Shown here in pieces: positions 1 through 62,641 of a stretch of DNA of 64,000 bases (position 1 is its first letter; each line of letters opens with the position of its first letter). The notes beneath the pieces were generated by a model. The model was not told the origin of the DNA. It saw only the letters and a list, made by a program, of their open reading frames with translations, and did no database searches. The position numbers and the translations under genes are program-made. The stretch comes from Amphiscolops sp. MND2022 (taxonomy: Eukaryota), in the NCBI GenBank assembly GCA_964187785.1, contig OZ076409.1, positions 78,308,001 through 78,372,000 of the forward strand, given 5' to 3'.

Positions 1-1
1 T

Positions 2-628
2 AAAAATAATCACTCTGTTTCAACTTGCTTTCGTCGCCTTAATTAACTCAAAGAATCGAAACCACAATCTCGATCTCCAACTCCTACCTTTTATCAACAT
101 TTTAAAACTCCTTCAAATAAATCTCGTTATCCTCGATACCGTAGTCGAAGTCATAGTACTCCATCTCGCAAATCCTCTCGCGACAATCGCTACGACAATC
201 GCTACCATTCTCGTTCTAATTCACGTTCACATTCACGCTCTAGATACAACTATAAAACATGCTCTCGTACATATTCCCCTTCTCATAATCGTGATAGATC
301 TCGATATGACAAACATTACCATCAAAATCCTTACAAACCATATACTTCTTCACGAACATATTATAACTCTAATTCTTCTCGTAGCCCATCTAAATATTAT
401 CTCCGTTCTCGTGAACGTGGCTCCAACTTTAATACTTCTACTTTTAACAGATACACCTCTCCTTATCGTCCTCCTTCTAAACCACGCAATGATCGTTATC
501 GTAGCCGATCTCATTCAAATTCAAATCACCCCTCTCCATCTCAATATAAACCTTCCTTAAATCTTACACATCCGTCTACACCACCCATTCAAAGCAACTC
601 CCCTTCACAAACTCATTTTGAAATAAAC
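2..628 (+). CDS. gag: Gag C-terminus: end of a Zn knuckle (HSVSTC) and a long Arg/Ser/Tyr-rich basic tail, in frame with pol; in-frame TAA at 44-46
   Basis: Manual translation of frame 2: KNNHSVSTCFRRLN*LKESKPQSRSP...RYRSRSHS...; open from 47 into the 629 ORF. Confidence 0.7.
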
Positions 629-3600
629 ATGTACCACCCTAATCCTCCATTCCCTCAATCTTCTTCAACTTCTACTGAACATGCTAATGCTCTCACACCT
701 TCCACTTGGTTTGTTAACTTATTTCTTTTTAAACCCAATGAAGATACCTCTATTCCCTCTAAATTAGAACTATTATTCTTACTTGACAGTGGAGCATCCA
801 TCTGTGTTTTAAATTTACCCACCTTCACCATTTTAGCCGATCATTTTTTAAAATGTTCAAAACACTCCCCACCTCAAAATGAATATAAAACTTTAACTGT
901 TGCCAATAAATCTGAAGTACCTATTCTCCATAATCTTATACTTACACTTCATACCTCCCTCCAAGGAAATACTCGTACCCTTGTTATCCCTTTTGCAGTT
1001 GCAAATATTAAATATAATATTCTTGGAACTCCCTTCTTTGAAAAATATGTTAAAACCCTCAATATTGAAAGCATGTCATTAACATTCAATACCCCACATG
1101 AATCTCGTATCAATACTCTCCCTTTCACGGCTCATAAAGAAAAGGATTATCCATATTTTTCTTACATATACACCATCAATGTTAAAAATAAAGTTTATTT
1201 TAAACCAAATGCTTCTCAAATTATTCATTTTCCAATTCAACCAACACTTCCTTTAACATTTAAAACTTCCGATAAAGAAGTTATATTTCCTTCCACACCC
1301 CATCCATTTTTTAAAACACGCTTCAACTCCACCTTTAATTTCCTCCAAGTATATCAAAATACTAATACCGAACCTTCCAGTTGTTCTGTGATTATTCAAA
1401 ATATCACACATCATTCTGCCATTCTTGCCCCTGGATCTATTGGATACATTGAAGTTCCAGCCACTAATATTCAACCAACTCATTACAAAGTTAATGATGT
1501 TAACTCTTTAATACACACTGTATTTCATAAATATTATCCTGATCTTTCTGAACCAAAACCTCCTCGCCGACGTTCTTCTCTTCGAAACCCTCAAATTGAA
1601 ATAAACAATTTGCAACCTTCTCAAATTTTAACCCGATCTCTTCCACCATTACCATATTCACCAGACACTCAACAATTCCTTCATAAATTTAAATTCCAAT
1701 ACTCTGATGTAACTGATGAAGAATATTTACAACTTTGCTCCATTCTTGTTAAATATCGATCATGCTACGCTACACATAAAAATGATGTTGGCCAGATAGC
1801 TACTCCTTTTAGAATTCGTCTTAAACCTAATGCTAAACTTCAAACTCAAAGACCTACCAAAGTTTCTATTCACTATAGAGAAAAATTAAAAACACTCCTT
1901 GATGAATTAGAAAAACACAATATTATTCGTCAAATTGGTTCCACTCATTCTGACAAATCCATCTATGGTACTACATTTTTAAACCCCCTTATTATTATCC
2001 CTAAGGGAGATACTATTAAAGTTGTTTTAGACGCACGCCATCTTAATTCAAACACCGATCAATCTTTCGAATCTTGGCCTATTGAACCACTAGCCCCCAA
2101 CTTGCACGTGCTAACAAAAAATTCAAATCCGCTATTGACCTTATGTACGCTTATGCCCACGCTCCTTTAGATGAAGAAACTATAACTTTAACAAGCTTCT
2201 CTTCTGGTGACAAACTTTACGCTTTCATTCGTGGATTTTATGGCCTTAAAGGCTTACCAAATTTCTTCACCAAACAAATGTATTCATTCTTTCAAAAACT
2301 TATTGACCAAGGTTTTGCATTAGTTTATATAGATGATATCCTTCTCCTCGCACATACAAAACCACATATGTTAACCTTAATTGAACAACTTCATCAAATT
2401 TGTCAAACAAATAATCTTAAAATTGCTCCTGAAAAATCGTTCTATATCCTCCTCACCGTCAAAGTTCTTGGACATGAAATCGGTAATAATACAATTAAAC
2501 CTATCTCTTCTAAAGTTGATGCTCTTCACAAATTAAAAACTCCTACTTCAAAAACTGAATTAATGCGCTTTATTGGATCAATGAATTTTTACTCCAAGTT
2601 CATCAACAAATTACACATCTCTTTAAAACCCTTTAACACTCTTCTCCATGATGATATTCCATTCGAATGGACCCCCGATTTAGATAAACTTTTTAACCAA
2701 ATCAAACTGTCTCTTTCTAAAGAAGCAGAACTTGCTATCCCAAATACAACTCATTCGTTTTATATAACTGTCGATGCCTCTTTAATAGGCCTAGGTGCAG
2801 TTTTATTTCAACCAAACTCCAAAAATAAAATGCAAATAATTTCTTATAATTCTCGTATTCTAACAACCCAAGAACAAAAACTTTCTACATATGATAGAGA
2901 ACTTTGTGCTATTACCTTTGCTCTTTCTCAATATGAATTTATTATAATTGGCTCCAAATTTCCAATAACTATTTTTACAGATCACAATCCTATTCTTTTC
3001 CTTTTCACCCGTAAAGGTAATCTAACTCCTAGACAATATAAAGCTCAAATGCTATTCACCAAATTTTCAAATATACAAATAATCCACACAGCCGGTACAA
3101 ATCTTACTGTTGCAGATATGCTTAGTAGAGATTTTTCAACTATTAATACCCAAACATGCCAACTTCAACACAAAACTCTTCCTCCTCATATTGATTTTCT
3201 TCAACTTAAAAATAACAATATTTTACAACCTATTCACTACCTCGTAAAACATGAAGATGTTCTTCCTACACAAAAAAATGATTCACACATAATTTTGGCT
3301 GATTACGGTGATGATCAATTCACACTTCGTATACAAGATAAAGGCAATGTTGTTAAATATACTCCTCTAGATTCCTTTTCATTTCAATCTGTTTCTTCAT
3401 TCCTGAATAAATACAAAAAACCTGTCAAAAATAAAGTCAAAACCTTACTTCAAGAAAACCCCCTTTTAAATGAAACTGATTTATATGAAACAGACGATCC
3501 TGTTCTTAAACGTATTCCTCATCAGCATTCCCAACCATCTCATGAACTTCACACTCTTTTTACCGAAATACAACACCATTATTTCAATGATATCAATTTG

Positions 3601-5752
3601 TCTCAAGACATCCTAACCAACTTCACCAATTCCTCTCCTATTATTAATAGTACTATTGAAAATAATGCTATAACTCAAACTACTCCAAAACCCATGCACA
3701 CTCAATCTTTACCATTTTTTGACCCCTCCTTCTTTGCTCATCGTAAAGCATTTGATAATTTCTTCCTTCCTTCTGACACGTTTCTCACAGTACCTATTTT
3801 ACTCCAAGCCCAAAAGGATGATCCTGTCCTTTCTACAGTATTTAAATGGTTAAAACAAAAACAAAGACCTCATTCCTTGACTCCAGTTATTAAAGCTAAC
3901 TCCTTTTTATATACATATTATAAACAATTTCAACATTTATACCTTGATCCAAGTTCTCATCTTATTCAATATTATACTCCTAATTCTCGGGTTTTTGAAG
4001 AAATTTTATTAAAACTCAACCCTCTATTAACCAAACACGTATATGCTTACCATTCAAACTTTTATATGCTGCATTTAGTAAAACACATTCTCATGGTCAT
4101 TCCGGTGAAAAACTCTCAATTAAGACATTTAATCAATTTTATTTCATCCCTCATTTACCTTTATGGTTCTCAATTTTCATCCATGACTGCATAGAATGTC
4201 AAACTAATAAGCATTTTCCTATTAAACCCCAAAACATTTCTCCTCCTCTTCCTTTTTATGAGAATGCTACCCACTTTAATTACCGGATTTCTATGGATAC
4301 TAAAGGCCCTATTTCTCCATCTTCACAAAACAACTCCTATATTTTTGTCATCATAGATGCATTCAGTCATTTTGTTGTTACAAATCCAGCTCCTCATATT
4401 ACTTCAAAATATGCTATTCAAACTCTCCTCCACCATTGGATCACAAAATTTGGTCCCCCTCAATATCTTGTTACAGACCGAGGTACTGAATATATAAATC
4501 AAGATATGGCTCATCTATGCTCTCTTTTTCATATTAATCACTCACCCCGAACTCCTTACTCTCCTTGGACAAATGGTTTAGTTGAAGTTCAAAACCGAAA
4601 TCTTGGAACTCATCTTCGAATTTTTTTGCAAAATCCTCCTATCAATTGGTCATTTCAAACGCAAATGTATGCATATGCTCATAATACGACACCTCTTTCT
4701 CAACTTAAACTTTCTCCTTATCAGATTGTTTTCCATACTCATCCTCGTATACCTCTCACCTTTTCTCTTAACTTACCTCGTAATGCTTCAAAAAATTGTA
4801 TTGCAACTTATTGTGAATCTCTTCCCCCCATTCCCATTACAGCACCCAAGATCTTAATCCCTTCTTTCACTCAATTCTTGAAAAACCTATCTCCTCCTGG
4901 CTTTTAGCAGCTGAGACTGCAATGTTAGAAATATATTCCACTGTCCATCGTCATATAAATCATAAACTTAATTCTCAAAGTTCTACATTTGAAACAACTC
5001 ACCTGAAACAATTACCTCTTAATACATTTGTCATTCATACTAATTTTAAACCTGTTAATTTTTCAAAAAAGCTCAAACCTCTTCGAATTGGCCCATATAA
5101 AATACTTAACCATCTTTCTGAAGTAACATATGAACTCCTTTCTCAAGACGGCTCTACCTTTCAAACCCATCGAAATCATATTATACCATATTATCCCAAA
5201 GAACCTATAATTTTTCCCTATATTAAACATTACTACTCTACTCCTTCCCTTATTAATAATCCTGATACTGAATCTTACCAAGATACCTTCTCTCGCTTTT
5301 CCTCCTTAGAACCACTCCAAACCTCAAATCAGTCTCAAACTCTTACATCTTCGAATCATAAAAAACATAACAATTCCCCCACTTCCATCCCTACATATCA
5401 AAACCTTTCCAGGTATTCTTCTTCACAAGATAACTTACATAATATTCCCCCTGCTACCCCTACTAACCAAAACTCTTTACATTCCTCTCCTTCCTTTCAC
5501 AATACCCTTGACACTACTTTTGACTCTCAAGACTCTGACTCTGAAATGCTTCCTAATCCAATTTATTATTCAAATTCCTCAAATGATTCTTTCCCCCAAT
5601 TCTTTCCTCGTATTGCTGATTCTTCAAATCTTTCATCATCATCTCCTTCACTTGATCCTCTAGCTATACCTAATTCTCCAAATGAAACTACTTACACACG
5701 AGCTCCTCACTCTCCTTATAATCTACGTTCACTTCCCCCCCCAACAATATAA
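629..5752 (+). pseudogene. pol: Ty3/Gypsy Pol polyprotein (PR, RT, RNaseH, IN) broken by frameshifts near 2095, 4005 and 4826
   Basis: LLDSGAS (protease); VLDARHLN and YIDDILL (RT); TVDAS, YDREL, TDH, ADMLSR (RNaseH); HSHGH...CIEC at ~4086-4199 in the 4293 frame, MDTKGP, TDRGTEY, NGLVE (IN); GPY motif RIGPYKI. Confidence 0.93.
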
Positions 5753-6123
5753 TCCCACAAAACCAAACATCAATTTTCCCCCCTAATTAAATATTCATTT
5801 TTAATTGAATTTACTACCCTTCTATACTGACGTTAGTCTAGACTTCTAATACAGTCTGACGAATGACAATTTAATTATGACAATGTAGTTAGTAATTGTC
5901 TCTTATACACCTTTCTTCACTTTATATTGCTGAGTTTAGCTGAACGGTTGCTCTAATAAAAACTTGATTTCATAAAAAATAAGTCTTAAATTTTCTCAGA
6001 CCTTTCTTCAATACTTCCTCTTCCCTCAATAATAATCTTTCTCCATCCCTTCATATTTAACCCTCTCTGTTTTAACACCACACAATTTTCTATTTTCTAA
6101 AACCACCCCAATAAACTTTCATT

Positions 6124-7471
6124 TTGTTTCCATCCTGGATCTTACTGTATTTTTGTCTGATTCCTCCTCTCAACCTTCTTCTTCTGTTTCAAGTGATACT
6201 ATACCTTCATCACAAAGTTTTTTTACCAACTTCTCAACAACCTCCCCTAAACCCTATACCAATCACCCCCTCTTTAGATACCACCCCTGTTAACACCCCA
6301 AGTCACACTCCTATTAAAACTTCTGTTCCTCAACATACTCAAACTTCTTTAACTCTCCCACTTTCTGATACTGAATTCCTTTTTGATATAACCCCTGCCC
6401 ATTCTCCCCCTCCTTCCTTTCATATCCCTGACCCTAGTGATATTAATCCTACTCTCCTACGCAATATTAATAATCCAAACATTCCTAAATCAAATCTCAT
6501 ACCTACCTCCATAAAATCTTTTCGTAGACGTTCCCAATTAGATCATTCCTTTTCTATTCCTCAACCTTGTTCTCATACTTCTTCTAAATCTTCACTTCTC
6601 TTAGCTAAACCACTAAAAATTCCTGCTCTCGAATCCCTTGATTCTCTTCAAAAGAAATCTGATTTAAGTGAAGTTGATTCAACTACTTGCTCTCTCATCT
6701 ATCCTCGTCTTCCTCCTTCAAATTCCGCCTCTAAATACACCACTTCTTCTTTAGATAACCTCCTCGACAATACCTCCGAATCTACTCTTCACCCACCACT
6801 TCGTCACAGATATAACCTTCGTAATAATCGTCGTCTTTCCCCTTCTCTTGCAAGCACTAACTCTTCTCTTTTACGTCACCACGCTCAATCTCTTTCTTCC
6901 GAATCTCTAACGGCAAATTCTCCAACTTCCGGATATTGACACTGCCTTTTCTCGACGTTCTTCTATTTCCTCTTATACTCACACTGGTCACCTTTTCTCT
7001 CGTCCCACTTCTCAAAACTCCAGTACTCTTTCATCTGACAGCCATATACTTAATATTGACCTTACTACTGACCAATACTCTACTCCTCCTACACCTAATC
7101 GTGTCGATTACCCTTTAATCGTAAATAGCACCCTTGTTAACAACCCCCGCCAAGACCCTCGTTTTCTCTACCTTGCAACCCATAAACTTAATTCAAATCC
7201 TCACATCTCTGATGCACGCCGTCGTAAAGAATTTCTTCGTCTTGAAGATACAAATTTAGAACTCAAATTTGAAATTACAGTAAAATTCCATAACTTAAGC
7301 CCCCACCCTATTCCTTCACATACAACAGTTCATTTTAAATCCCTTCCTCATCCATTTATTACCACAAATCTTAACCTTTTTGTCAGCGACCATCCCCCCT
7401 TCCGTCTTCTACACGGTTCAATCACTTTTCTTAATACCCTAACGTTTTTAAAATATACTGCACAATTTTAA
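6124..7471 (+). CDS. Orphan accessory ORF X (Pro/Ser-rich N-half, globular-looking C-half), frameshifted near 6220 and between 6911 and 6936
   Basis: Track ORF 6124-6939 plus an ATG-less open frame 6911-7471 (LQLPDIDTAFSRRSS...FLKYTAQF*) whose stop ends one base before the env ATG. Confidence 0.55.
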
Positions 7472-7472
7472 C

Positions 7473-10227
7473 ATGCTCTCTTCCTTTCTTCACTCGTTCT
7501 TTTACTTCCTTTCTTCCTTATTCTTAGCTTCTTTCCAAATTACTCCCTCTCCTGATCATGTGGATCCCAACGATCCTCATATATCGGATCTTTTAGTATC
7601 TCATTATGACTGTTCTAAACAACACAATTTAAGACAATTTAGTCTTACCAGAGTACAACCTTGTGCTCAGGCTCCGTCTGCTTTTGAAAGTACTCGTGCT
7701 ATTGTTGATGTTTTTGTTCGTGCTAAAGCTAAACGTCTTAAAGCCTGGACTTGTGAAGCTTATGTTAAACGTGAAAAATTTGTCTGTGCACAATCCGATT
7801 ACAAATACCGTCGCCATGATCGTACGGATTATCACCAAAATACTATGGAACGCCCCCGTACTCTCGATCCTACCGAATGCAAACATGCTATTCGCCATTT
7901 AAATGGTACTAATAATCCTCAACTTGATGCTTTTAATTACTCCAACTCTTTTACATTTTTCAATGATATTCAAAAACAACGCCTTTTAGAAACAAAACAA
8001 CCTCCTTTTCGTATTACTAAACTCAATACTTTTCACTATGGTGCTTTTGCTTGGACCAGCAATTCCCAATTAGTTTTAAATTCTACTTTAAAAGAAAAAG
8101 CTGTTTGTTGGGATCGCTATGAATATATTATCGAAAAAGATAGTTGGTCTCTCATCGTTGAAGAAATTGAAATTACTTATGATGATAAAGATAACAAACT
8201 TATTTACCATGGACATACCTTACCCTGCCTCCATGATGATGGTTTTTGCAAACCAACTATATTAACACCTTTTACCATTGTTTGGTTTCCTGAAGACCTT
8301 TGTTTAATATTTTCCATACATTCTTTTATTGGTAGAATGTCTAAACTTAATAATCGCTATTGGCTTGAAACTGAACACTTTTTTAATAACCACTCCTCCA
8401 CTATTTCAACCGATACTCCTTATCATGATACCAAATCTCAAACCCGTCTCTCTCGTTTTGAAATTTTCCCTGAAAATAAAATGTTTTGTAAAAAACCGAC
8501 TCCTCTACATCTTACTCAATATCCTGATCTTTTTATAACATATAAAGAAGGATTTAATATGCAAACTGGTAAACCCAATCCTCTTCAACTACCGCAAAAT
8601 GAACAATATAATCAACTTACTACCCAGTTAATATCTGGAAAAGTAATTCATACCCAAAATAAATTTCTTTTCCCTGCTTTAAATTCTTCCAATAATTTTG
8701 CCACTATTGACTATGAAGCCCATATTAATACAAAAATTGACTATTCTATAAATCATGTATTTAAAAGCATGTCTGTTGCCGAACTTAACACCCTCCATAC
8801 TATATGTGAAGTCGAAAGAACTCAACTTTTAACCATTCTCGCCATGTCCGTAAAAAATCCACAACTTGCTGGTTTTCTCTTAACTCAAAACCGTAGTAAC
8901 TTTTTATATGTCGAAGGCTCTACTGCCTGGCTATACGACTGTCCTCATCATCTTTCACCTCTTTATATTGCAGACCAATGCTATGACAAAATTCCTGTTA
9001 ATTATCTTGACACCGTCATGTATGTCGACCCTATTACACGTCAAACTTTTGAGTATGCTAATCAAATTCCTTGTGAAAATAATCCTCAAAATGTAATATC
9101 TCTTGACCCTGATACCGATCAATATTATGTTTTAACTCCACAACCTATTAAAAAAGATCCTCCTCTTCTTTTTGAACCGACTCAAATTCAAACTGCTATT
9201 AGTCCTAACACCTTTACCGCTCAAGATGCTGGAATCTATTCTCAAAAAGAATTGAAACATTTTTGGAATCGTGTTTTATTTACTAAACACTCCGACAACA
9301 CTCTTCAACTCCTTGGAAAAGCTATTAGCTATGAATTCATGAATCAACAATCTGATAACTCATTTCCTGATAATCCTTACCGTTCACTCCGAATTGGTCT
9401 TCATGACTATATGTTTAACTTAACTCCATTTTTTTTCACCTGATTGGTTCACCGATGCTTTCATAAAACTTTTTGGCTACCCATGCTATATTTTAACCCA
9501 ATGTGGAATTTATTTCTCTACCGCTCTCTTCCTACAATTTGCTTTCAACACACTCTTTAGTATTTATCGTTCATTTACTGTTCGAAATTTGCTTAAAAAA
9601 CAAATCTCTGTAATTACTGCTTTAGGCTTTGGTTTCTTTGGAACCATTACCCAAACAATGATGACTGCTATGATTAAATCATCCAATTCACCATCAGATC
9701 CTAACGATTCAGATTCCCCCCACTCCCCATTGGCAAAAACCCATACCCTATCTTCTAGTCCCAAAACTCGTCCACCTAAATACCATACGAATATTAAAAC
9801 GAAACTCCTTAATTTAAAAAACAAAACTCCAATGCAAAGATTTTCACCTAATTCTTCTCCAAGTAAACCTATTTCTTCTCCTATTCCACATTCTACTCCC
9901 ACTAATACTGAAGATCATTTACTCCCACCCCCACATTATAATTCTCACCTTTCATCTCATAATAATCTGTCTCCTCGACCTCCTCAAATACCTTCATTAA
10001 CTTCCTCTTTATATTTACATAATTCTCCTCCTCCTGATGACACCAATTGTGATAATTCTTCAAATGATTCCCCCATACATAACCTATGGCAATCTACAAA
10101 ACTTTATCCCCCTACTCCGCCACCAATTAAAACTAATGACATCCCCTTAACTTCTGTTAATAATATTTTTGACCCCTCTGACAGTCCTGTCAAAGTTTAT
10201 TCTTCTTGCCGTTTTCCTCCTGAATAA
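7473..10227 (+). CDS. env: Envelope glycoprotein resembling class III fusogens (chuvirus G / herpes gB-like); +1 frameshift at T8 run 9429-9436 joins ORFs 7473-9443 and 9589-10227
   Basis: Hydrophobic signal peptide, HYDCS, Cys-rich ectodomain with several N-X-S/T sites, TQYPDLFI, HINTKIDY, CEVER, CYDKIPV...VDPITR; after the shift PDWF...YILTQCGIYFSTALFLQFAFNTLFSIY (TM) and a Pro/Ser-rich tail. Confidence 0.85.
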
Positions 10228-10542
10228 ATTTTCATTTCTTAATTTCTTCATTCCATATCCTGCATATTAATACTTTAATTTACTTACTTCCAAATCAATT
10301 TTACATATTAATCTTTGACCTCCTTTACATACTAATTATAAATATCGTTACCTTTTTCCCATTTCATTTGTAGTCGTTTTTGCTTTTCATTTGGTCACTT
10401 CTCTTTCTCTTCTCCAAAATCACTCATCTTTCACATTTCATAACATCCTCTTTTGCATCTACATACCTTTTCCAAACTACTCATACAACGTACGTTTGTT
10501 TCGCACTCAACTTTTGTCTTAAACTCCTTTCGTGATTTCAAA

Positions 10543-12033
10543 ATGACAAATACGAATCCTGAAGAAGAACTCTTGTCGAGTATAGCTTCATTGTCACCCC
10601 CCCCCCTTTCTCTTAAATCTGGTACCCTCGATATTCCTCTTGTCACTGACTCCTCGCTTCCTCTTGATTCTAACCCCACACCAGAACCCACTTTAAATGG
10701 TACTTCTACAACTTCGCAATCCCTTAATAAACCATCTTCTGTAAAACTTAAAACTCGTCATTCTCCTACCCCGCCTCCTAATAACCTTCATTTTACTGTT
10801 GACAATCATCAAATTCCGCACAAAAAGAAATATAATATTCTTGAAGATCCCGTCTTCCTTGATTCTGGTATCCTCCCTCCAACCCTTCACCCATTGAAAA
10901 CTCCTTCCCAATCTAATACAATGACCGACGAATTTCTTCGCACACATCCCAATTTTAAAGCCAATCTTCCTTCACTATATATGACTCCTACATCTTATAA
11001 ATTTCGCCTCCCTCAAGATCGTAATTTTGATCATTATGTCGCCTATGCTTCGAAAAACCTACCACAACTTGCTTTCTGGCAAAATAAACGTATTCGTTTC
11101 TTCCAATTTCAATTCAATCTTCTTAAACCAACACAACATGATTTAAATACCAATCCAAATGATATTACCACCACTCCTTCTGTTAAAAAACTTCACCATC
11201 AAGCCTACCAACTTTTTTTAGAACAAAAACATCCCCAAAAGTTTATTTTTCAAAATCACAAATTCACTTCCCCGTTTTCCTACCACTCTCACTATTCTTT
11301 AAATCATCTCTTCACTATTGGAACAATTCGAAATTATGATCCAGTTAAACAATATTTTATTCTTTCTTCTTACCATGATCCTACTCGCCCGTTGTTTGTT
11401 CCTCAAGAAGCTCTTAATGTAAATGATGACTTTCTCCTCCCAACTCATATTCCTAACGCTGTTCCTAACTTCTTCCCCAAAATGAATAAATTAGTTGAAA
11501 CACCTCTTGACGATCACTCCCGCTCTTTATATACAGCTCTTATTCACAAACACTATTCTCTCGCACAACTCAATTTTATTATTGCAAAACTCTCCTCCTT
11601 TATTTTGAAAAAACAATATAAATATTTCTCTTTAAATGTCTCTGATGAAATTCTTCAAACTCTTCCTAAACATACTCCGCCTAATACAGTAACTGAATCT
11701 TCTCAGGCTCCTCCTTCAACAATCCCTCCTCAATCAAATTCGTATGTGCTTCAGACTACAAACCCTAATGTTTGTATCAACTCCTTCTCTTGTCCTACAG
11801 ATAAATTTGTCTCCGAAATTCTCACTCTTCTTCGCCCTCATGTTGAAATTGCTCCTAATACTGATCCATTTGTTATTTTAAATCACATTTTTGACACGTT
11901 CCGTATTCTCCAATCTTTACTTCAACTTCATTCTTCAGATATCCAAAATTTGACCCTTTCTACAATTCATGTTAATGATTTTCTCAAAAAGCTTGTTTTA
12001 CTTGAAACTCCTCCTCAATTGACTTCATCTTAG
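10543..12033 (+). CDS. Orphan accessory ORF Y of the retroelement (~496 aa from ATG 10543)
   Basis: Uninterrupted ORF with the element's compositional bias, between env and the LTR; no recognised family. Confidence 0.7.
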   Translation: MTNTNPEEELLSSIASLSPPPLSLKSGTLDIPLVTDSSLPLDSNPTPEPTLNGTSTTSQSLNKPSSVKLKTRHSPTPPPNNLHFTVDNHQIPHKKKYNILEDPVFLDSGILPPTLHPLKTPSQSNTMTDEFLRTHPNFKANLPSLYMTPTSYKFRLPQDRNFDHYVAYASKNLPQLAFWQNKRIRFFQFQFNLLKPTQHDLNTNPNDITTTPSVKKLHHQAYQLFLEQKHPQKFIFQNHKFTSPFSYHSHYSLNHLFTIGTIRNYDPVKQYFILSSYHDPTRPLFVPQEALNVNDDFLLPTHIPNAVPNFFPKMNKLVETPLDDHSRSLYTALIHKHYSLAQLNFIIAKLSSFILKKQYKYFSLNVSDEILQTLPKHTPPNTVTESSQAPPSTIPPQSNSYVLQTTNPNVCINSFSCPTDKFVSEILTLLRPHVEIAPNTDPFVILNHIFDTFRILQSLLQLHSSDIQNLTLSTIHVNDFLKKLVLLETPPQLTSS

Positions 12034-12682
12034 CATTCTTCTTTTCCAGAATTTCTTTTCTGTGCACTTTCTCTTACAGTAATTCTCTCATTTGGCAAGA
12101 AATCAAACCTTTTCTATTAAACATCCTTCCTATATTTCCCAACACTTTTCTCCTATTTTGTTTAATGATTCGTTTTCTTCTCCAAGCATCTTATCTTATA
12201 CTTTCAAAACTTTCCTCAACTCTTTTACAATCTTTAACAATCACTCTTTTCACTTCCTCAATCTTATCTTCTTTGACTTTAATACCTAATTATATATCTA
12301 TATAATTTCATTTCCTTCCTCCTCATTTACATATATTACTTCATTTTCCTTTCATTTTGACACTTCTTCCTATTAACTTCTTTACATTTAAATACTCTCA
12401 CTTGACATTTTTAATCGTTCTTCTTTTAAAAATTCTGACAACAGGCTCTTCATCTTTTAATTCTATTATTTTTAAAGTAATTTCCTTTTCTCATTTTTTT
12501 CTTCTCATTTACTCTTTCGAAATCTCTCAACTTCACTACTACTACAAAATTTTCCTTCCTAATTTTCAACTCATCTTCTGAAATCAATAAATTTCATCAC
12601 AACATTTTCTTTCTCTATATTAAACTGCTCTCTAGTATTTACAATAAGTACAAAATAATTCTACAATAATTTTGTTTTAGTC

Positions 12683-13459
12683 ATGTCAGATTATCCTTCT
12701 TCTTCTCTGGCATACCCTCTCCTTAACCAACTCCTTGACTCTCTTCTGCCATTTCCTGTCTCTTCTACTTCTTCGACATTCACACTCTCGACCATGGATA
12801 CTTCTTTGTCTGTAGCATCATCATCAGATACTTCTTTGTCGGTGGCATCATCATCATCATCATCATCTGTTTCTTCAACTCCTACTATTCAACCGCCACT
12901 CAGCTCTCTTGTGACCACAACTACTCTTCAACCGCCACTCAGCTCTCTTGCGACAACAACTCCTTCTCTCCAAATTCCCGTGACTTCTTCTCTTCCACAT
13001 CCAACTTTGTTGCCAATCTCCACTATTCCCCTGCACCTTCACGATGCAGTCGCAACTTCTCCCAATCTTCAACAATTTTCAGCTGTTCGACAATTGACGC
13101 ACGATCTTCAAATCAAAAAACCACGGCACCCCAAACGTCCACAGCTCTCAAATGGAAACGGTCCACCTGTCCGTCGACTGGTCCACACATGGGTCTACAA
13201 ACAGAAACTTTCACAATATATCGACGCACTCAAAATGTACGAAAAACATTTAGATGAACTCATTTATCAAACTACGCTCCAATTAGATATTATTAATAAT
13301 AAACTCCCCCCTTCAAAATTACGTACATTTAAATCGCCTCCATTCACAAATAGACCTTTATCCCCATTGACTATTCAAATCCCCCCTCATAATTGCTCTC
13401 ACTATAACAATTACATTCAATGCACTACCCCCCATTGTTCCCATGTTCCAGTAAAATAA
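12683..13459 (+). CDS. Orphan accessory ORF Z (258 aa): Ser/Thr/Pro repeats, basic and helical segment, His/Cys-rich C-terminus
   Basis: ATG-initiated ORF with internal tandem repeats (DTSLSVASSS x2, QPPLSSL x2), KKPRHPKRP, and HNCSHYNNYIQCTTPHCSH. Confidence 0.6.
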   Translation: MSDYPSSSLAYPLLNQLLDSLLPFPVSSTSSTFTLSTMDTSLSVASSSDTSLSVASSSSSSSVSSTPTIQPPLSSLVTTTTLQPPLSSLATTTPSLQIPVTSSLPHPTLLPISTIPLHLHDAVATSPNLQQFSAVRQLTHDLQIKKPRHPKRPQLSNGNGPPVRRLVHTWVYKQKLSQYIDALKMYEKHLDELIYQTTLQLDIINNKLPPSKLRTFKSPPFTNRPLSPLTIQIPPHNCSHYNNYIQCTTPHCSHVPVK

Positions 13460-14914
13460 ACATGTCATTCTCCTTTACCCCCCCCCCTCTCTCTTTCCCC
13501 CGCATTAATTCCCATTCGTATTGAACCCGTAACACCACCCTCTCAATCCCCCACTCCTTTAAATGATTTAGATAATTTAGTAACTTCCTTAAACGATGTC
13601 GATTGAACTTTGCCCTATGTTTTTTTTTTAATTCATTTGTACATTTTGTTCAAAATCATCTATGCTTCTTGGTGTTTTCATACATTTCACCCCGCCCCCT
13701 ACCTACATTGATTGTCACCCCCCCACCCTTTTATTTTCAACATTTCACCTTCTTTTTTAATGATGATTTAAAATTTTTCTTTAGTGTTAAACAAAATTTT
13801 TCATAAATTTCTCTTATAACTTCGGTTCTACTGGACATAATTTTCTAAATTACATATTCCCATGCCCCTTCCGACCCAATCTCTTCCAAATTGTGGAGCT
13901 ATCTTTTTCTATTCAATTTTATTCCACTTCAATAAACATTTTTTTCAACTCAATTCCAATTTTTAACCTTTCTCCCAAAAACATTTTTAACTTTACTCCT
14001 CTATAACTTCAATTCTAAAAAATCTCCTCGTTTTTCCTTACTCTTCCCAATTCACAAATTCAAACACACTCACCTCACTGACAAACTCTTCATCCTTTGC
14101 CAATTCTGCAACTGAATTCGTTCGCTCAAAAATTTTGAAAAATGTGTGAAATGACCTGCCACATGATCTAAATTTGAACAAATGTTGACTCACATAGATT
14201 TGTTTTCGCCGCCAACTTTGATCTAATCACGCCGCCTTGTTTTGAAGTTCTACAATTTCATTTTCGTTGCTCACAAGCCAAGACTCAAAAAAGATCAACG
14301 CTTAGTTAACAAACAACTAAGAATCTTTTGTCTTCCATGTTGAACTTCTCTGTCAATCAGGCTGCCAAAATCTTGCCAAAAATTTTTCTGTCACACTCCT
14401 GCCTGCCACTCAAATCTTTTGCCGCTTCGGAAGAAAACTAAACATTAAGAAAATTGTGAATGAATTCAATACCAAAATAAATCTTATGTGAAATTTCATA
14501 CCCATCACCAACATGAACGTAAAAGCAACTCTAAACAAATTCTTATTTTAAAAACTCCAAATAAATTCTATAACTTATTGATCAAAATTACCTAATATCT
14601 GGAAAATTTTTGCTTCCCAATTTTGCACGCAACTCACGTAAGGAAAGATACAACAAGAAGACAACTTTCAAGACAATTTCCAAGACAACTTTCTCTTGAG
14701 ATATAAAAATTTTTTTTCCATAAAAATTTATATTAGCAAATACCAAATTTCCTTTTTAACCAAATACCATATTTCATCTTTAGATTTTCTCGTATTATCC
14801 CTTAAACCAATCTCCGACAATTTTAACAACACCCCAACTTTTGAATATACACTAATCAATCTTAAATTTAACACCACAGTTTACTTCCATTTTTATTTTC
14901 AAAACCCGGTCGGA

Positions 14915-15526
14915 TGATATACCATGATTGATGCTATACTATAAATTATATTTATCCCCCCGCCCCGTGTATGTCTAGACTGTAAAACTACAATTGTACT
15001 CCATTTATATTCTAGATGTAAAATGATTGATGTAACCACTTTATATTCAATACCATAGATCGATGTAACTAATTTATATTCAATACTATAAACCTTCATT
15101 TAGAACACAACTTGAATTGACTCTTCACCGATTAGTTGTCTTCACTCTAAGACCTAATAACTGCAGCTCTATTAGTGTCTCTTAAAGTACTAATCGTAAC
15201 ATCAATAAAAAGATTCAATTCCTCGTATAACTAAAATACCAACTACAACCAAGTACTTTAACAGATACGTAAGGAGTGCTCAACAACATTGGTTGTTGTA
15301 TGGCTCGCTCGCTTCGATCCCTTCGCCAAGTAGCAACATTGAGGCATGGATTTCGGCTGTTTGGGAATTCCTCATCTGGCAGTGGATCGAAGTGAAGCAT
15401 TGGAAATAAAATGCTCAACAGAATAAAGCATTTTCCCACTGTGTATTCTAAGATAAAGGGTAAGGAAACAAAGTTACTACTATAATATCTTCTTTCGCGA
15501 GTATTGCATCAAAGCAAACTATATCA
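14915..15526 (+). repeat. Candidate 3' LTR of the large Gypsy element
   Basis: TGATATA at 14915 and TATATCA ending 15526 (7-bp inverted termini); ~25-bp direct repeats near 15029 and 15062; TATAAA ~15087; AATAAA 15204. An alternative end is ...TTAACA at 15262. Confidence 0.5.
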
Positions 15527-16262
15527 CAAATACATACGTAATGAGTCTCTATCTCAAAGTTTACTGTTCAGACAGTACAGCAGGTACTGTCTGCGCCGAT
15601 GCTCAGTAGAGGTCGATGACGGATGAACTGTATGACAACCTCACTTTTTAAAACGTTGAGGATGTCAACCTTTTTGTTTATGAAAGACAGGATATCAGCG
15701 CATTTTAAAACCTCTGGAATTGGTAGTCACCTGAAAATGAAAATGTTTTGAGAAACAACGTCCCGTAACGCGAATACTATCATTTTAAGCTGGAGACTTT
15801 TGAAGATTTCAAATAATTTCAATCCTCAACTTGATGGACTTTTAAAATACATTTCGTTAGTAAACATAAACTCCATTTTTAATCCTGTAGGACTGCATTT
15901 TGTTAACTCTTGTTCTAACAACTTTTAGTATGATTTTCTAAAACTTTCTGCAATTTTCAGATTTCCCTTGTATTCAATTTTTATTAAGCTGCTTGAAAAT
16001 TTCGGCGAGCAGGAATAGCGTTTAAATGCAAAACGGGAATAACGTCTAGAGCCAACTATTCTAGCTATCTTTATACATTGAAATTAAACGCTAATCCTTA
16101 GACGTTATTTTTGTCTTCAGAAAATTTCATCCAAAACTTGGCGGCAATTTCAAGTTTTGCAAGGTTCATTGTGAATCGGTCCCAGCTCACTTGGCTGGTA
16201 TTTGGGGTAAGATCATTTGGGTGGTTTTTTCCTACCCTAAATGAGCCGTCCTTCTAAACTTT

Positions 16263-16744
16263 AACAAGCCGTGATCGTCTCAAGTCGGCTTCATATCTAA
16301 GGTTCAAAAATATTCGAGGAACAACAATTGGAAACATTTGGAATTTTTTTCAAAAAAAAGTATTTGGTGAAAAAAGTCGCATATTGCCGAAAAACCCAAA
16401 AAGAGACCCTTTAGGCTCAATAAACGTTTTTTACAAACAGAAAACTTCAAAAAAGTCAGTGGGTATCCTTTGATAAATTTCAAAACGTTTCGGAATAATG
16501 TCGCATAGTGCCAAAAAAAACCGCAAAAGCTGGACCCCTTGGTCTCCAGTATACTTTTGAAGCATTAAAAAATTGTGATTTAGTGCGAGAATCGAACCCA
16601 CTTTGCTTCTGTTCGACCTCCCTTAGCAAGATGGGAACATAAGCGGCCCCAAGGGCCGCGGGGCACTAGACGGAATGGGGACATTCCCAGGGGCGCTTGA
16701 TATGTAAGAGTCGTGCATTTTCTTCGAAAACACCGACTGAAAAA
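16263..16744 (-). mobile_element. Non-autonomous Helentron/HINE-like element inserted into another repeat
   Basis: Termini AACAAGCCG...AAGTCGGC...TATCTAAGG and ...TTCGAAAACACCGACTGAAAA match the family ends at 62641 and 63666; empty site at 37667-37706. Confidence 0.65.
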
Positions 16745-17920
16745 GATGTCTGAGAACAATTTTATTAGAATAACGGAGAAAATAACGGAAAGCAGAAAGT
16801 TGTATTTCTGATTTCAGATTTCAAAATGGCGGTCTCTAATCCGCGAAATATCATAATGTGGGGCGTATGCGGTGTATGTATGTCTTCGTTCCCGCTAGGT
16901 CTTTGCTTCTGTTCGACCTCGCTTAGCAAGATGGGAACATGAGCGGCCCCAAGGGCCGCGGGGCACTAGACGGAATGGGGACATTCCGAGGGGCGCTTGA
17001 TATGACATGTTTAATTTTCGATCCGAGTGGGGCATAATCATTTGGGTAGGAAAAAACTACCCAAATGATTCAAACCCAAATGATTATGCTTTATTGTGAA
17101 TGTTTTATTTTCAAATGCAGCTAAGACGTAATAAATTCTACTGCCACTTATGCAGATTTAAGTTCAGTCACAATAATGGAAAACGAATTTACGCATTTCA
17201 AATAGAGTTCCAATGGTAGAGGGGATCAGTAATGACATCTAACGAATAAAGGTCTAAATGCAAAAAAACGGGAATGACAACTAAAACCCAGTCATGCTCA
17301 TTCCTCATCTTTATACATTAACATTATTCTTGGACCATGTTTCTTGTTTCTTTTACCCTCGGGGGGGTGCGGGGGTGGTTTAAGCAACAAGATATCATTG
17401 TCGACATCATTTGCGTTGAAATTTTGGTCCAATAAAAATAATTGGGACCGTATTTCTTATCCCCCAAGTACACCTTGTTTTGAATCTCTAATCAGCACGA
17501 AAGCACATTTTATTTTTGGAGAAAAATATTTCACTGATAAAAGAATTTTATATGAATGTAAATACTTAGAGGATTGTCCACTCAACAAAGTAGATAACTG
17601 TTTTGACACTTCCAGCAAAAAATATCATATTTTTTCGATATTATTGTCAAAAATAGCAAAAAATAACGTTTGGAACAATCTAAAAAGGTTCTTTTGCATG
17701 CAAATTTTCTCCACAATAAAAAATTAGCAATTTTTAACTGAATTTATGTAAAAAATAGGATCATGTCGACATCAATTATTTCATTGGACCAAAATTTCAA
17801 CGAAAACGTTGTCGACATATTGGTATTTGAATCTTGTTTTTCATTCCCCGCTCCCCGCAGCCGCTTGGGGTCTTGAGGGATAAGAAACATGGTCCAATAT
17901 TTGATGTAGACATAATAATA

Positions 17921-18375
17921 CAGTACTGTGATCAAGGAAACGTCCCCCGGGCGATTTTAGGCTCGATTTTCTCGAGATTGGTTGAAAATTTTGAAAAACT
18001 TCAGAAATAGAAGTTTCTCAGAATTTCATTTAGTTTACATTAGTATGTTTTTTAAGTTTCTGAGACAAAAATTGAGAGTTACGAATAGCTGATTTTGAGC
18101 AAATTCGGGACTTTTTGCAGTTTTTCCAATTTTCGACCGCTTTATTCAGTTTTTTTGGCCAGTTTTATGCTCAATTATCTCTCACAAAGCTGCTGAGAAT
18201 CAATGGATGTATTTTGATTTCAAAAATGATCAACCGTTTTAGAGTTATCAGGCTCAAAAGGTAACATTTCCTCAATTTCAATCCGTGCGCCAATCAAAAT
18301 TGAAAGTAAGAGCAGATATACAACTTTGATTGGCTGAAAACGTCATAGGTGGACGATTTCTTAATCACAGTACTG
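17921..18375. mobile_element. Tc1/mariner-type MITE with TA target duplication
   Basis: TA|CAGTACTGTGATCAAGGAAACGTCC ... GGACGATTTCTTAATCACAGTACTG|TA; truncated second copy at ~38184-38590. Confidence 0.8.
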
Positions 18376-18379
18376 TATT

Positions 18380-19428
18380 TGGACCATGTCATCTATCCCC
18401 CCCCAAACTGCGGCGGGGGGGATAAGACAGAAGGTTCAAATCCCATTATGTCGACATCGCTTGCGTTGAAATTTTGGTCCAATAAAATAATTGATGTTGA
18501 CACAATCCTATCAATTACATTGACTGTCAGTTGAAAGTTGCTCATTAGATTTTACAGCGGACAAAACTTGCGCTAAATAGGGCCTTTTTATACGATTTTA
18601 GTTTGTTCCAAGCGTGAATTTCTGTTCTTTCGGACAATAATATCAAAAATTAGCGTCATGTTTTTGCCTGAAGTATCCAAACATTTGTAGAGACAATCCT
18701 CTAAGTATTTACATTCATATAATATTCTCTTATTAGCGAAATATTTTTATTCAAGAACAAAATGTGCTTTCGTGTTGGGGGGGGGTATTCCCAACAAGGT
18801 GTATCTGGGGGGGGGGGAATAAATGACATGGTCCCTGTATTTTTTACATTGATGAACGATTAAAAGTGGCTCATTAATGAGCCGCTCATTTAATTTTATG
18901 GAGAAAATTTGCGTTGAAATAGGGACAATGTTGGACATTATATCAAAAATAACGGTCATTGGACCTGTCATCTATTCCCCCAGGTACACCTTGTTGTGAA
19001 CCCCCCAACACGAAAGCACATTTTGTTCTTGAATAAAAAAATATTTCACTAATAAGATAATATTATATGAATGTAAATACTTAGAGGATTGTCTCTCCAT
19101 TGTTTGGACACTTCAGGCAAAAACATGACGCTAATTTTTGATATTATTGTCCAAAAGAACAGCAATTCACGCTGGGAACAAACTAAAATCGTATAAAAAG
19201 GCCCCTATTTCAATGCAAATTTTCTCCGTGATAAAATTTATTGAGTAACTTTTAGCTGACAGTCAATGGATTGGATAGGATTAATGTCAATTTGATATAA
19301 TTATGTCGACATCAATTACTTCATTGGACCGAAATTCCAACGCAAACGATGTCGACATAATGGTATTTGAACCCTCTGTCTTATTTTCCCCCGCCACAGT
19401 TTGGTGGGTGGAATAGACGACATGGTCC
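18380..19428. repeat. Foldback / long inverted repeat with ~450-bp arms (18380-18832 and 18960-19428); related arm copy at ~17445-17895
   Basis: Reverse-complement matching blocks, e.g. TTCAAGAACAAAATGTGCTTTCGTGTTGGGG vs CCCCAACACGAAAGCACATTTTGTTCTTGAA. Confidence 0.8.
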
Positions 19429-19919
19429 GGGTCATTTTTGTTGGAAGTGTCAAAACGGCGACAGAGACAATCTTCAACCATATAAAACTCTTATCAGTGG
19501 TTTCTTTTTCTTCAACAATAAAATGTGTTTACGTGTTTTGAATGGGTTGGGGAGCAAGAATAACGTCCAAGGAATAACGTCTAAGGAATAACGTCCAAAG
19601 CCAAGTCATGCTCAATCATTCTTAATACATAGGATTTTAGCCGTTATTCCTTTAGACGTTATTCCCGAAACACTTTTAGACGTTATTCCTTATTAGCGAA
19701 TCCTTAGAGGTTATTCGCGTCCCTAGAATGGGATAGTACGAAATAAGGTTTACCTGGAGAGGAATAAAAAACATGATCCTTATTTCATTGAGATTTTATT
19801 CACGGAACACTTTGTTGCCCCTTGAACTGTGTTCGCGCTCTTAAGTTACAATCAATCATTAGAAGACTCCTTGCAACAGTGTTTGACATTAAAGGAGAGT
19901 CGCCAACGCAATCACGCTG

Positions 19920-20231: not shown

Positions 20232-23200
20232 ATGGCTCTAGTCAACGATCGTAAGTTAGCATTTTATAATTTCGAGCATTTTCGAAAATTCTTGGTTTAC
20301 CCCAGATCTTTTCTTGGAGAAAATATATATTTGCAATGTATTGTCGTACGTTAACTTTTTCAAACGTTTTCACAATGGATGTTTCCGAATATAATTGGAT
20401 ATTATTGGTGTTGCAGTGATATCACAAGCACTGATGTTTTAGATGGTGCACATAATATTTCAAAGAATGGCGGGTCTGGAGTGAGGCTGTCAGAGCCATT
20501 TCAGTAAGTTTTATTCTGTTTTCGAAATCCAACCAATGTTTGCATAGATGGAAGCAACACTTTAGATGCTATTCCAGTTTCTCACGTAGCATGTACCATG
20601 TAATCTTCCTCAGTAGGCGAGCGGGAATAACGTCTGAAGTCAAGTCATGCCCAGATATGCTCCTTTCCAATCTTGATACCTCGAACTTTTAATGTTATTT
20701 CTTGACATGTTATTCGCGCCTCTACGTTCAGTAGTGTGGCCCCGCAAACATGTTCCCGAGATTGCTCGGGACCACACTGCTTATGGAGGTTACTGACTGA
20801 TCACATTACTTTAATCGCCATAATCAAGCATTTCAGCAATCATGAGAAATTTTGGGTATCCTTGAGTTGTATGACTTTTCCGGAACCTCCCTGAAGTAAT
20901 AAAGAGCTAAGATAACTTTTAGTTCAATTTTCAGGAGGGCTCGTCACTTGAGAATATACTCTTCCGGGTCCACTATTTAAGGATGTGTTGAAACATATTT
21001 GAGCGGGTCCTAACTACTTAAGAATTGCCAAATCTGGTTTGCGCGTCAGCTTGAGTATTGAAAATTATTCACATTCATTAGTTGAGGAATTACGCGTAAG
21101 CCAATGATGAGAAGTAATCCATCACAAAAAATTATTGACCTCAAAAATGTCATGCGATTTTTCTTCAGGGTCAAAGCAAATGCTACAGATTTACGACATA
21201 AAGTAAATGCCAAAGCTAAAGGGGTGATAACTTCATCAACGAGGCAGAACAGAGACGATGAAAACTTTGCATTGATCAGGAAAAGACACAGTTATACTGA
21301 GGTGAACGGGCAATTTAGATGCAATGGATGCAATCGGTTGTTCAAAAGAGAAGGACAACTTGATCGCCATAAATGCTTCAAAGAAGATTTTTCTCCTGAT
21401 ACTGCTGAAGTTAAAGATGCGAAACGGAAACGCCCAGATTTACCTCGCGCAACAGCGCCACCAAAGAATGCCCCATTCATTCAAAAAGCGAAGTCAGAGG
21501 TTCCTTACAAAAAGGTTGGGAATACAAAACTTGAGAATCTGGAAGAAGGGCCGTTTTTCTATCGCGTGAAGAAAAACATTCAGCTCTGTAATCCAGATGT
21601 GGAAAATGGATCCAAAAAAGTTGAAGTACAAGTTAGTGTAGAAGGAGACACAGAGGAGGTTATCCGGGAAATGTATCAATGTCTAAATTGCGAGGCAATT
21701 CTTCCTAATTTGGAAGATATTTCAAGACATTTGAAGGGCCATATGCCTACCTATCAGTTTTGCTGCAAATTTTGTCCTGATAGATGGCGATTTACTCATG
21801 ATACCTTGTCTGGAGTTTTGAAGCATGTTCGTTCTACTCATTCTAGTCAGTACGATTCGTTGACATGCGTACGTTGTGGATTTGAGGCTAGTTCGGCTAC
21901 TGATCTGGAGAAGCATATGGATTTAAAGCATTATCCAGGCACAACTTACAGCTGTTCAAGTTGTGGCGATAATTTCGGTTTATCTATTTTGTCTTTGGTG
22001 AATCATGTTCGAGCAAAGCATGCTACCGAGGATCCGTTGCTACTGGAAACTGTTGTCATCGAGGCTAAAACATTATATCAGTCGGAAGATATTTATGAAT
22101 GTAATATCTGTTCCAAAATTTTCTTCTTGAAAACTCACATCGAAGCTCACAAAGAAGCCCATGCATCTGGGAGTTTGGACATCAATGACGATGATTGCGT
22201 CGGCCTTTTCAGATGTTGTCACTGTAGCTATCAAGCTAATCACGTTGAGGAATTAAGACTGCATTTCAATTTGGCTCACCAGCATCTGATGTGCAAGATT
22301 TGTGGCGCTATTATCATATCTGGGCCAACTTTCACGGAGACTCTATTAAATCATGTTTTAGTTTCTCATGAAACTAAAAACGACTTCGACGCCCTTTCCT
22401 ATTTCGAACAGTTATTCAAAGAAGCTAAAAATCTATTTTCAGTCAAATCGTCCCTGAAATGCAAAATTTGTCCGAAAATGTTTTTCACCCGCAAGTCGTT
22501 TTCCGAACACATGCGAACTCACGAAGGTGGTAACGTTGTGAACTTCATCTGTGAAGTTTGTGGCTTCACTTGTCCTACAAGACAGAAGTTGAGGAGACAC
22601 GTGAGAAGTCATAAATTTTTGTATTACTGCCCTGATAGCAAACTATTTTTCACTAGCAACCAAACTTTACAAGAACATTTGATAAACTGCTATTCAGATA
22701 ACGAAGAATTACCATGTCATGAGTATAAACGCAGTCTTGTAGTGAGTTTGTTTTTACCGGAGCCAGGATTTCCTGCCCACATTCCACAGAATTTCGTAAA
22801 CAATGATATTATTATTGATTTCTACAAAGGAAAAACGACCAATCTATGTGGTGAAAAATTTGAGTTCCCGAAGTACGCGCAAACGTCTTTGAACAAAGCT
22901 CAAAGTAAAAACAACGAAGGAACCGAGGAGACTAATCATGAATTAGATGAAGGATATAATTCTCCGATGGAAGTTATCGAGACTGAGAAAAATGAAGCTG
23001 AAAAGTGTGATCATAATTCTCAAGAAAATAATATGGAAAATGCAGAAACTTCTGTTACAGAACAAGGGGCTTCCGAAGCAGTTGGTGAGGGAACAACAAT
23101 TTTATTGGTCACTGGCGAAGAAGGATCAGAAGAACAAATCGCCATAGAGTTGCCTCCTGGAACAGACGGTGCTCAAACTTTGCGGGAATTGGGATTGAAC

Positions 23201-62630: not shown

Positions 62631-62641
62631 AATCCAACCGA

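Follow-up and report, generated by a model that had tools for sequence, protein, structure and literature searches.

What can a Ty3/gypsy element carry beside gag, pol and env, and are its extra open reading frames (ORFs) genes at all? These questions are raised by the first 15.3 kb of a 64,000-nucleotide stretch of the Amphiscolops sp. MND2022 genome (GCA_964187785.1, contig OZ076409.1, positions 78,308,001 to 78,372,000; hereafter the window), where an original prediction, made from the letters alone, had proposed a giant long terminal repeat (LTR) element with gag-pol, env and three orphan ORFs, X, Y and Z. The element is real, multi-copy and recently active. It is an env-bearing retroelement of Ty3/gypsy (Metaviridae) type whose complex genome has eight ORFs; in the full family layout, three small membrane ORFs are followed by gag-pol, X, env, Y and Z. 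The three accessory ORFs of the original prediction hold, but three further small ORFs before gag, also under selection, had been overlooked. An active element of this kind, with its eight ORFs serving the roles proposed below, is probably the best overall explanation of the locus.

The element measures 18,789 bp, with 3,529 bp upstream of the window and 15,260 bp inside it, where gag-pol, X, env, Y and Z all run in one direction. This co-orientation and the shared base bias, both proposed earlier, are confirmed by the ORF map and by composition: G makes up 8.6% of the element vs 19.2% of the flank, and a GC skew of -0.3 to -0.67 extends across the element until the bias stops near 15 kb. The 5' LTR and the 5' part of gag, which had been placed outside the window, were both located in the upstream DNA, where extension also recovered the primer-binding site (PBS) and the target-site duplication (TSD). 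The 5' LTR (5972-6317 of locus L011, 3.5 kb upstream of the window) is identical to the 3' LTR (14,915-15,260, + strand; 346 bp, TG...TA ends, AATAAA at 15204), and the 4-bp TSD ACAG at 15261-15264 (+ strand) is found again directly before the 5' LTR. The element had been drawn as 1..15526 and ending in a candidate LTR; this LTR is real, but the end lies at 15,260, an overshoot of 266 bases of host DNA. A reading of 15,261-15,526 as LTR was rejected, since similarity to other copies ends at ~15,260.

Searches of the 1.07-Gb host genome with the 3' end, Y-Z and X-env as queries returned at least 40, at least 40 and at least 39 matches, and the Y core at >=90% identity gives at least 150 copies (the best 150 of 6,990 candidates scored). 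For comparison, 20 of the 38 other X-env matches were sampled down the ranking (the close copies). An LTR pair is present in 19 of these 20, with 97.7-100% identity and a 4-bp TSD in 17 of the 19 pairs, and therefore several sublineages have inserted recently. As had been anticipated, X, env, Y and Z recur in the other copies and lie inside the LTR pair. Frames are open for gag-pol (>2,500 aa) in 4, X in 16, env in 6, Y in 12 and Z in 15 of the 20 copies; the count adopted for Y is anchored on motifs, and one anchored on the start gives 7/20. The window copy itself carries about 11 frame-changing coding indels (four in gag, four in pol, two in X, one in env) and an early stop in Z. Nine of its 12 listed indels, one of them non-coding, adjoin homopolymers of >=5; these frameshifts, present despite identical LTRs, could be assembly errors or the product of a defective template copied in trans. 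A search of metagenome and viral contigs gave no related loci.

The additional ORFs are not chance frames, because they are open in other copies and their ratio of nonsynonymous to synonymous substitution (dN/dS) lies far below 1. Within the family, the synonymous share of variants shared among copies was compared with that of singletons, and shared variants are far more synonymous in X (P=0.02 and 6e-5, the 5' piece taking in ~35 codons that do not belong to the family frame), env (2e-8) and Y (5e-7). Between subfamilies, three of the 12 loci of subfamily-1b (77-79% DNA identity; synonymous divergence, dS, 0.6-1.35) give dN/dS values of 0.10 for X, 0.04-0.05 for the env ectodomain, 0.14-0.16 for the env tail, 0.07-0.09 for Y and 0.23-0.31 for Z, so that purifying selection acts on all four, Z being the weakest case. 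The ORFs before gag show shared nonsynonymous/synonymous counts of 1/10, 0/5 and 7/11, vs 12/6, 11/4 and 10/0 in control ORFs of the 3' untranslated region (UTR); the pooled P value is 4e-5, or 4e-6 when these neutral ORFs serve as the reference. X, Y, Z and the three ORFs before gag are thus very probably protein genes kept by selection, Z least securely: its within-family signal is not significant (P=0.18) and counts against the interpretation. The opposite view, in which the extra ORFs are passengers or frames left open by a G-poor composition, can point to the 8.6% G and to alternative frames that stay open in the low-complexity gag, but values of 0.07-0.3 at near-saturated synonymous sites, the same slots in four families and controls that behave neutrally make it highly improbable.

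The most unusual of these genes is ORF X (6135-7471, + strand), one frame of ~445 codons, broken near 6220 and 6920 in the window copy and also open in 12/12 subfamily-1b copies. It lacks methionine in every family, a feature that the original prediction had missed. Among 45 X homologues there are four internal methionines in 17,507 residues, compared with 120 in 12,332 for Y. Conservation begins at a CTG (6135-6137) flanked by an A in position -3 and by GA in +4/+5, and the pattern A-n-n-CTG-GA is found in 19/20 close copies, 12/12 subfamily-1b copies and 5/5 distant-family loci listed; CTG accounts for ~2% of leucine codons, yet is kept at this position. The window X contains one AUG triplet in any frame vs eight expected, and 11/12 subfamily-1b copies contain none. 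Between pol and X lie ~340 poorly conserved, stop-containing bases with a splice-acceptor-like site, YAG/TCTAG at 5834-5841 (+ strand), ~300 nt before the CTG, a candidate 5' junction for a subgenomic X-env RNA. It is present in 19/20 close copies and aligned in two subfamily-1b copies; in that subfamily it was found at 3/12 loci, coverage of the other nine not having been checked. Downstream, the X stop lies 1-8 nt from the env AUG in family 1 and in 7/12 subfamily-1b copies, while in families 2 and 3 the first env AUG overlaps X by ~55 nt.

The protein predicted from X consists of a disordered, Ser/Pro/Thr-rich N-terminal part of ~320 residues, partly Ser/Arg-rich and basic, and a conserved 125-aa C-terminal domain (7094-7468), without a match in Pfam, PDB or Atlas. 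YPxL, PSAP and PPxY are known from the budding of enveloped viruses as late-domain motifs, for ALIX, Tsg101 and Nedd4 respectively. The disordered part of X carries YPxL at 6697-6711, LYPxL occurs in 5/5 X family representatives (shuffle chance 0.01-0.02 each), YPxL in 33 of the 45 database homologues, many of which are truncated, and PSAP in X of families 2 and 3. PPxY is found in the env tail at 9772 and 9928 and in 5/5 env tails of X-type families; the gag pieces examined contain no late-domain motif.

The env gene (7473-10227, + strand; ~920 codons) is broken near 9420 in the window copy, and an ORF at 9,424/9,658-10,227, considered as a separate gene, was rejected, being the membrane anchor and tail of env shifted out of frame. 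A signal-like N-terminus is followed by a Cys-rich ectodomain with 14 conserved cysteines, a membrane segment (~9490-9570) and a cytoplasmic tail. Pfam assigns 7,452-9,440 to PF24664 (Monjiviricetes_fusion, E 2e-27, above cut-off), which bears out the earlier proposal of a class III-like fusogen as far as a chuvirus/gB-type env is concerned, the class III fold itself being a prediction from Pfam and the literature. No PDB sequence matches env, and a single-sequence model has a predicted local distance difference test (pLDDT) score of 33, with a chuvirus-like glycoprotein as the top Foldseek row at a non-significant E of 0.02.

How X would be made, and what it would do, can be put together from these features. 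In the arrangement that we favour, gag-pol would be translated from full-length RNA, while a spliced RNA starting in the pol-X gap would carry X and env jointly; a few ribosomes would initiate X at the CUG in its ideal context, and the others would scan through the AUG-poor X to the env AUG. Such a bicistronic RNA with CUG start and leaky scanning is, as a reading of sequence, rather likely. A precedent in a reverse-transcribing virus is rice tungro bacilliform virus (RTBV), where ribosomes initiate at AUU and others reach later ORFs by leaky scanning across stretches free of AUG, although this plant pararetrovirus has neither env nor integrase (PMC5902531). Several points weigh against it: with the protein held fixed, the deficit of out-of-frame AUGs is modest (1 vs 1.8, 3 vs 7, 4 vs 6), X of families 2 and 3 retains two to three AUGs with short frames, and short AUG frames sit between the candidate acceptor and the CUG. 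No hairpin was found downstream of the CUG. Alternatively, X might gain its N-terminus from a leader AUG exon by splicing or from recoding of pol, with the CTG incidental and env expressed by stop-restart or from its own RNA. The acceptor-like site in the pol-X gap, the weak depletion of AUGs, the short distance between the X stop and the env AUG and the TAATG overlap of the third small ORF (sORF-C) with gag all suit this alternative, the last two as expected for termination-reinitiation; however, no AG acceptor is common to all families between -200 and +300 of the CTG, the spacer between pol and X is poorly conserved and interrupted by stops, and the A at -3 is retained next to variable positions -2 and -1, which renders it unlikely. 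Stop-restart is possible in family 1, but the ~55-nt overlap in families 2 and 3 is better suited to scanning.

If X is made in this way, the late-domain motifs kept in X and in the env tails suggest a matrix-like adaptor: X would recruit the endosomal sorting complexes required for transport (ESCRT) through LYPxL, aided by PSAP in two families, the env tail would contribute PPxY, and enveloped particles would bud and fuse by means of the gB-type env. This role for X, read from short motifs, is conceivable but falls short of probable. The motifs are shared by descent and are not independent, they are missing from the sister families of the MATH type, no R-x-[KR]-R furin site was found in env, the env anchor is only moderately hydrophobic, and env is open in only the 6/20 close copies mentioned, all of which speak against it. 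A competing possibility is that the element stays within the cell as a retrotransposon and uses its accessory genes to export RNA, suppress silencing or manipulate the host, X not being a budding factor and env mediating at most local cell-to-cell transfer. Accessory genes of this sort are known from Cer1 (CERV; PMC10309623) and from the domains of Burro (PMC6431247), sister families encode MATH/TRAF proteins, X is partly basic and Ser/Arg-rich, and hundreds of germline insertions do not need free particles. Against it stand the env ectodomain, with its very low dN/dS and its conserved cysteines, and the retention of late-domain motifs in otherwise divergent disordered regions, and we regard it as doubtful.

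Beyond env lie Y and Z. ORF Y (10543-12033, + strand; 496 aa) has a conserved core, FQNHKF..RNYDP..VPQEAL (11248-11415), and a C-terminal helix. A deep search gives 633 relatives at E<=0.001, all of them unnamed, and Y relatives that reach only 38-45% identity to anything scored in this genome suggest that the lineage occurs in other hosts. Pfam, PDB and Atlas contain no match to Y. A model from a 16-row alignment has pLDDT 38, and fold searches with the low-confidence Y and env models returned helices only (Z<=5.2); designed repeat proteins were rejected as relatives of the core, the match being a 20-residue turn summed over six repeats. The core may have a Tudor/SH3-like fold, and we tentatively suggest that Y is a conserved regulatory protein, perhaps binding nucleic acid or chromatin. 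ORF Z (12675-13610, + strand; ATG at 12683) has ~304 codons in the family and an early stop at 13459 in the window copy, and is composed of a Ser/Thr-rich N-terminal part, a helical middle and a Cys/His cluster. Two nucleotides before its AUG, an acceptor-like site, T-rich-YAG/TNATG, is present in 20/20 copies and kept amid divergent DNA. In the gap between Y and Z, a 46-codon ORF (12165-12305) has its ATG in 20/20 copies, with shared nonsynonymous/synonymous counts of 5/6 and singleton counts of 13/1; it may be a ninth gene, but alignment of this gap with the subfamily is poor.

The three small ORFs upstream of gag encode hydrophobic proteins of 45, 37 and 78 aa that start with MP, MF and MN and have hydropathies of 2.8-3.2, and the stop of sORF-C overlaps the gag AUG as TAATG. 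The first, sORF-A, has homologues in three families, with a score attained by 0/500 shuffles; for the third, homology is confined to families 2 and 3.

The same genome contains sister families in which the slots of this layout can be followed. At eight loci of further families, with a reverse transcriptase (RT) 57% identical, the order pol / X / env / Y is retained; one of the eight (L057) is without X through a deletion, which counts against the interpretation. At one locus (L055) pol sequence recurs after Y. The last slot of families 2-4 is occupied by an unrelated ORF of ~150 aa, Z2 (60% identity; 6928-7377 of L052 and 6942-7418 of L059), which replaces Z and does not occur in the window; Z and Z2 are both without a match in Pfam, PDB or Atlas. 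LTR ends are TG...TA in the window's family vs TG...CA in families 2 and 3. Six loci represent more distant env-bearing families (RT 43%, env 28-30% identity), in which 4-5 kb of other ORFs, including two paralogous orphan ORFs of ~150 aa, separate pol from env, and the terminal ORF combines a coiled coil with a MATH/TRAF domain (Pfam E to 8e-22; L089 5060-5830, L087 5298-6320, L083 5373-6005 and, by similarity, L085 4981-5799). One of them, L080/L081, is 12.2 kb long and has gag, pol and env between LTRs of 508 bp, the primer site of the window's family and, following env, a single ORF of 524 aa with a coiled coil. The Y core resembles the short post-env ORF of the more distant families weakly (hhalign E 0.003, probability 11%, 48 ungapped columns; E 0.45 for X as a control). 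This varied cargo indicates that complex elements with env have radiated in the genome and that what they carry can be exchanged. Whether the Z slot in particular holds exchangeable, spliced genes for interaction with the host, replaced in sister families by an unrelated ORF or a MATH/TRAF protein, we judge an even question.

The replicative part of the element is of the ordinary type in most respects. The 3' part of gag-pol occupies 1-5790 (+ strand), from the Arg/Ser-rich end of gag to a low-complexity tail; the frame, whose start lies 2,106 bases before the window, is broken near 2090, 4000, 4810 and 5720 in the window copy. The pol order is protease (LDSGA, 782-796), RT (YIDD, 2326-2337), RNase H, a bridge of ~330 codons and integrase (HHCC at ~4086-4199, DDE core, SH3, then the low-complexity tail), and Pfam finds RVT_1, RT_RNaseH, rve, Integrase_H2C2 and SH3_Tf2-1 in the window and Retrotrans_gag upstream. 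Among solved structures the closest RT is that of Ty3 (E 8e-29), followed by a polyprotein entry (2e-22), which we take to be of caulimovirus type, and the foamy-type Pr125Pol (4e-9); the nearest database RTs outside the lineage are 28-32% identical, and a 29-row RT tree without labelled references unites all families of this genome that bear env in a single clade on a long branch (100/100). At 47-560 the end of gag is Arg/Ser/Tyr-rich, with no zinc knuckle seen there and an alternative frame open in 16/20 copies.

The PBS, two bases past the 5' LTR, is complementary over 12 nt to host tRNA-Met(CAU) genes plus CCA. At loci L075 and L071 the 3' half of tRNA-Met with CCA is fused to the reverse complement of a family LTR end; judged by its sequence, the L075 junction is a fossil of tRNA-Met priming, the primer having been copied into the genome. 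Against these 12 nt and the fossil junction, tRNA-Val and tRNA-Leu, which match over 11 nt, were set aside as primers of the window's family; the primer site of families 2 and 3 matches a tRNA-Val gene over 13 nt. Copying of RNA from LTR to LTR, priming by elongator tRNA-Met and integration with 4-bp duplications can therefore be read from the sequence with near certainty. Less in keeping with this is the lack of a polypurine tract, the longest purine run in the 60 nt before the 3' LTR being 4 nt in the window and in 20/20 copies. Its position is taken by a conserved non-purine motif, AAAACCCGGTCGGA (14901-14914), and a CCCGG motif resembling it occurs in families 2 and 3. This motif ends the 3' UTR (13611-14914, + strand), in which small ORFs evolve neutrally. 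After the PBS, at L011 6395-6650, there are four to five tandem units of ~51 nt, each folding into two hairpins that sit on a GUAC stem, and the changes that distinguish the units are paired (z -5.3 vs dinucleotide shuffles). These units are a candidate packaging signal; the leader repeats of families 2 and 3 are of another kind, and their folding signal is weaker.

Elements of this kind are not new, because Ty3/gypsy elements with a gB-type env (PMC13524379) and Burro (PMC6431247) have been described; of the earlier proposal of an undescribed lineage, what stands is the layout, for which the searched literature, as far as the accessible parts of its papers go, holds no described match. The closest likeness is to the 'ancient errantiviruses', found across metazoans, which share gag-pol followed by a chuvirus/gB-type env, LTRs, a tRNA PBS and many recent copies, and which likewise do not require a furin site; the entry mechanism of their env is called unknown in that study (Chary & Hayashi, eLife 2026; PMC13524379). 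In contrast, they have three ORFs, with no accessory ORFs described in the part of the study considered, and span about 7-11 kb between LTRs in the rows compared (PMC13524379), whereas the present element has 18.8 kb and adds six ORFs, with X between pol and env. It departs from their three-ORF layout with env next to pol, and lacks a polypurine tract. A further mark of that group is an RNase H plus 'mini' domain in the bridge region (PMC13524379); the bridge of the present element has ~330 codons. The giant gypsy elements of planarians, Burro/GYPSM1, resemble it in size, env homology, accessory ORFs and MATH, found here in sister families (PMC6431247). The same review mentions additional ORFs located between pol and env or behind env. 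Burro exceeds 30 kb, however, and has its env-like region in frame between gag and pol together with BIR, BCL2 and ankyrin domains (PMC6431247), unlike the 18.8-kb element with its separate downstream env, its orphan X, Y and Z and no Pfam match to MATH, BIR or BCL2.

The small ORFs recall sORF1 and sORF2 of Drosophila MDG1, which are selected transmembrane ORFs upstream of gag (PMC11952523); MDG1 elements are without env, and their sORF2 bears a basic patch and in most cases a motif for myristoylation (PMC11952523), in contrast to the present ORFs, which have neither a basic tail nor such a motif and coexist with env. Two Ty3/gypsy-type elements, Cer1 of C. elegans, with an accessory regulatory protein from spliced RNA (PMC10309623), and Tor of Oikopleura, with a separate env transcript (PMC4402516), are similar in these respects, but in the parts of these sources considered they have at most one accessory protein and no reported sequence link to X, Y or Z. 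Captures of chuvirus glycoproteins (PMC10084718) and, as far as covered, the ORF3s of bdelloids are partial precedents. Troyka was set aside on account of its CG ends and 3-bp TSD (PMC12440569). Complex Retroviridae, marked by a connection domain plus a new RNase H beside the RT and by a class I env, were rejected, the RT being far nearer to Ty3 than to foamy or MLV-type (murine leukaemia virus) enzymes and env being PF24664, not class I. BEL/Pao 'Anakin', which carries a chuvirus glycoprotein, was rejected as Pfam gives solely Ty3/gypsy-type domains and not the gag and protease domains of BEL/Pao.

No element with this layout and no CUG-started gene of an LTR element was found in the literature searched, Repbase, Dfam and subscription journals being outside that search. 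The family may of course have been catalogued already, in Repbase, Dfam or a genome paper, which would leave only the annotation new. Its abundance, with at least 150 copies, and the presence of its proteins in public assemblies would suit this, but no named relative exceeds 32% RT identity, the PBS is missing from the 1,512-element errantivirus table, and the gap of ~1.7 kb between pol and env exceeds the first filter of that survey (<=1 kb, with later steps 3-5 kb out; PMC13524379); we think prior description improbable. More speculatively, the families may form a deeply branching, isolated line of Ty3/gypsy elements in which a complex enveloped virus arose independently. It would have a matrix-like X that starts at CUG and recruits ESCRT, a conserved regulatory protein in Y, small membrane proteins and one slot in which host antagonists can be swapped (Z, Z2, MATH/TRAF). 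If so, X would be made at a fixed ratio to env through leaky scanning, and the element would be an invertebrate counterpart of complex retroviruses that is still multiplying in this genome. The late-domain protein tied to env, the PPxY tails and the small membrane proteins, in hundreds of young copies, would be candidates for particle exit and entry. The family also shows that accessory genes under selection can be as numerous in Metaviridae as in complex retroviruses, and that surveys which demand env beside pol, or AUG-started ORFs, can overlook such lineages.

Outside the element, the window contains an 824-codon C2H2 zinc-finger ORF (21086-23560), probably a host gene or exon, and nested inverted-repeat elements resembling miniature inverted-repeat transposable elements, together with a ~493-bp tandem duplication, in the flank at 16000-19700, 37700-38540 and 62640-63670.

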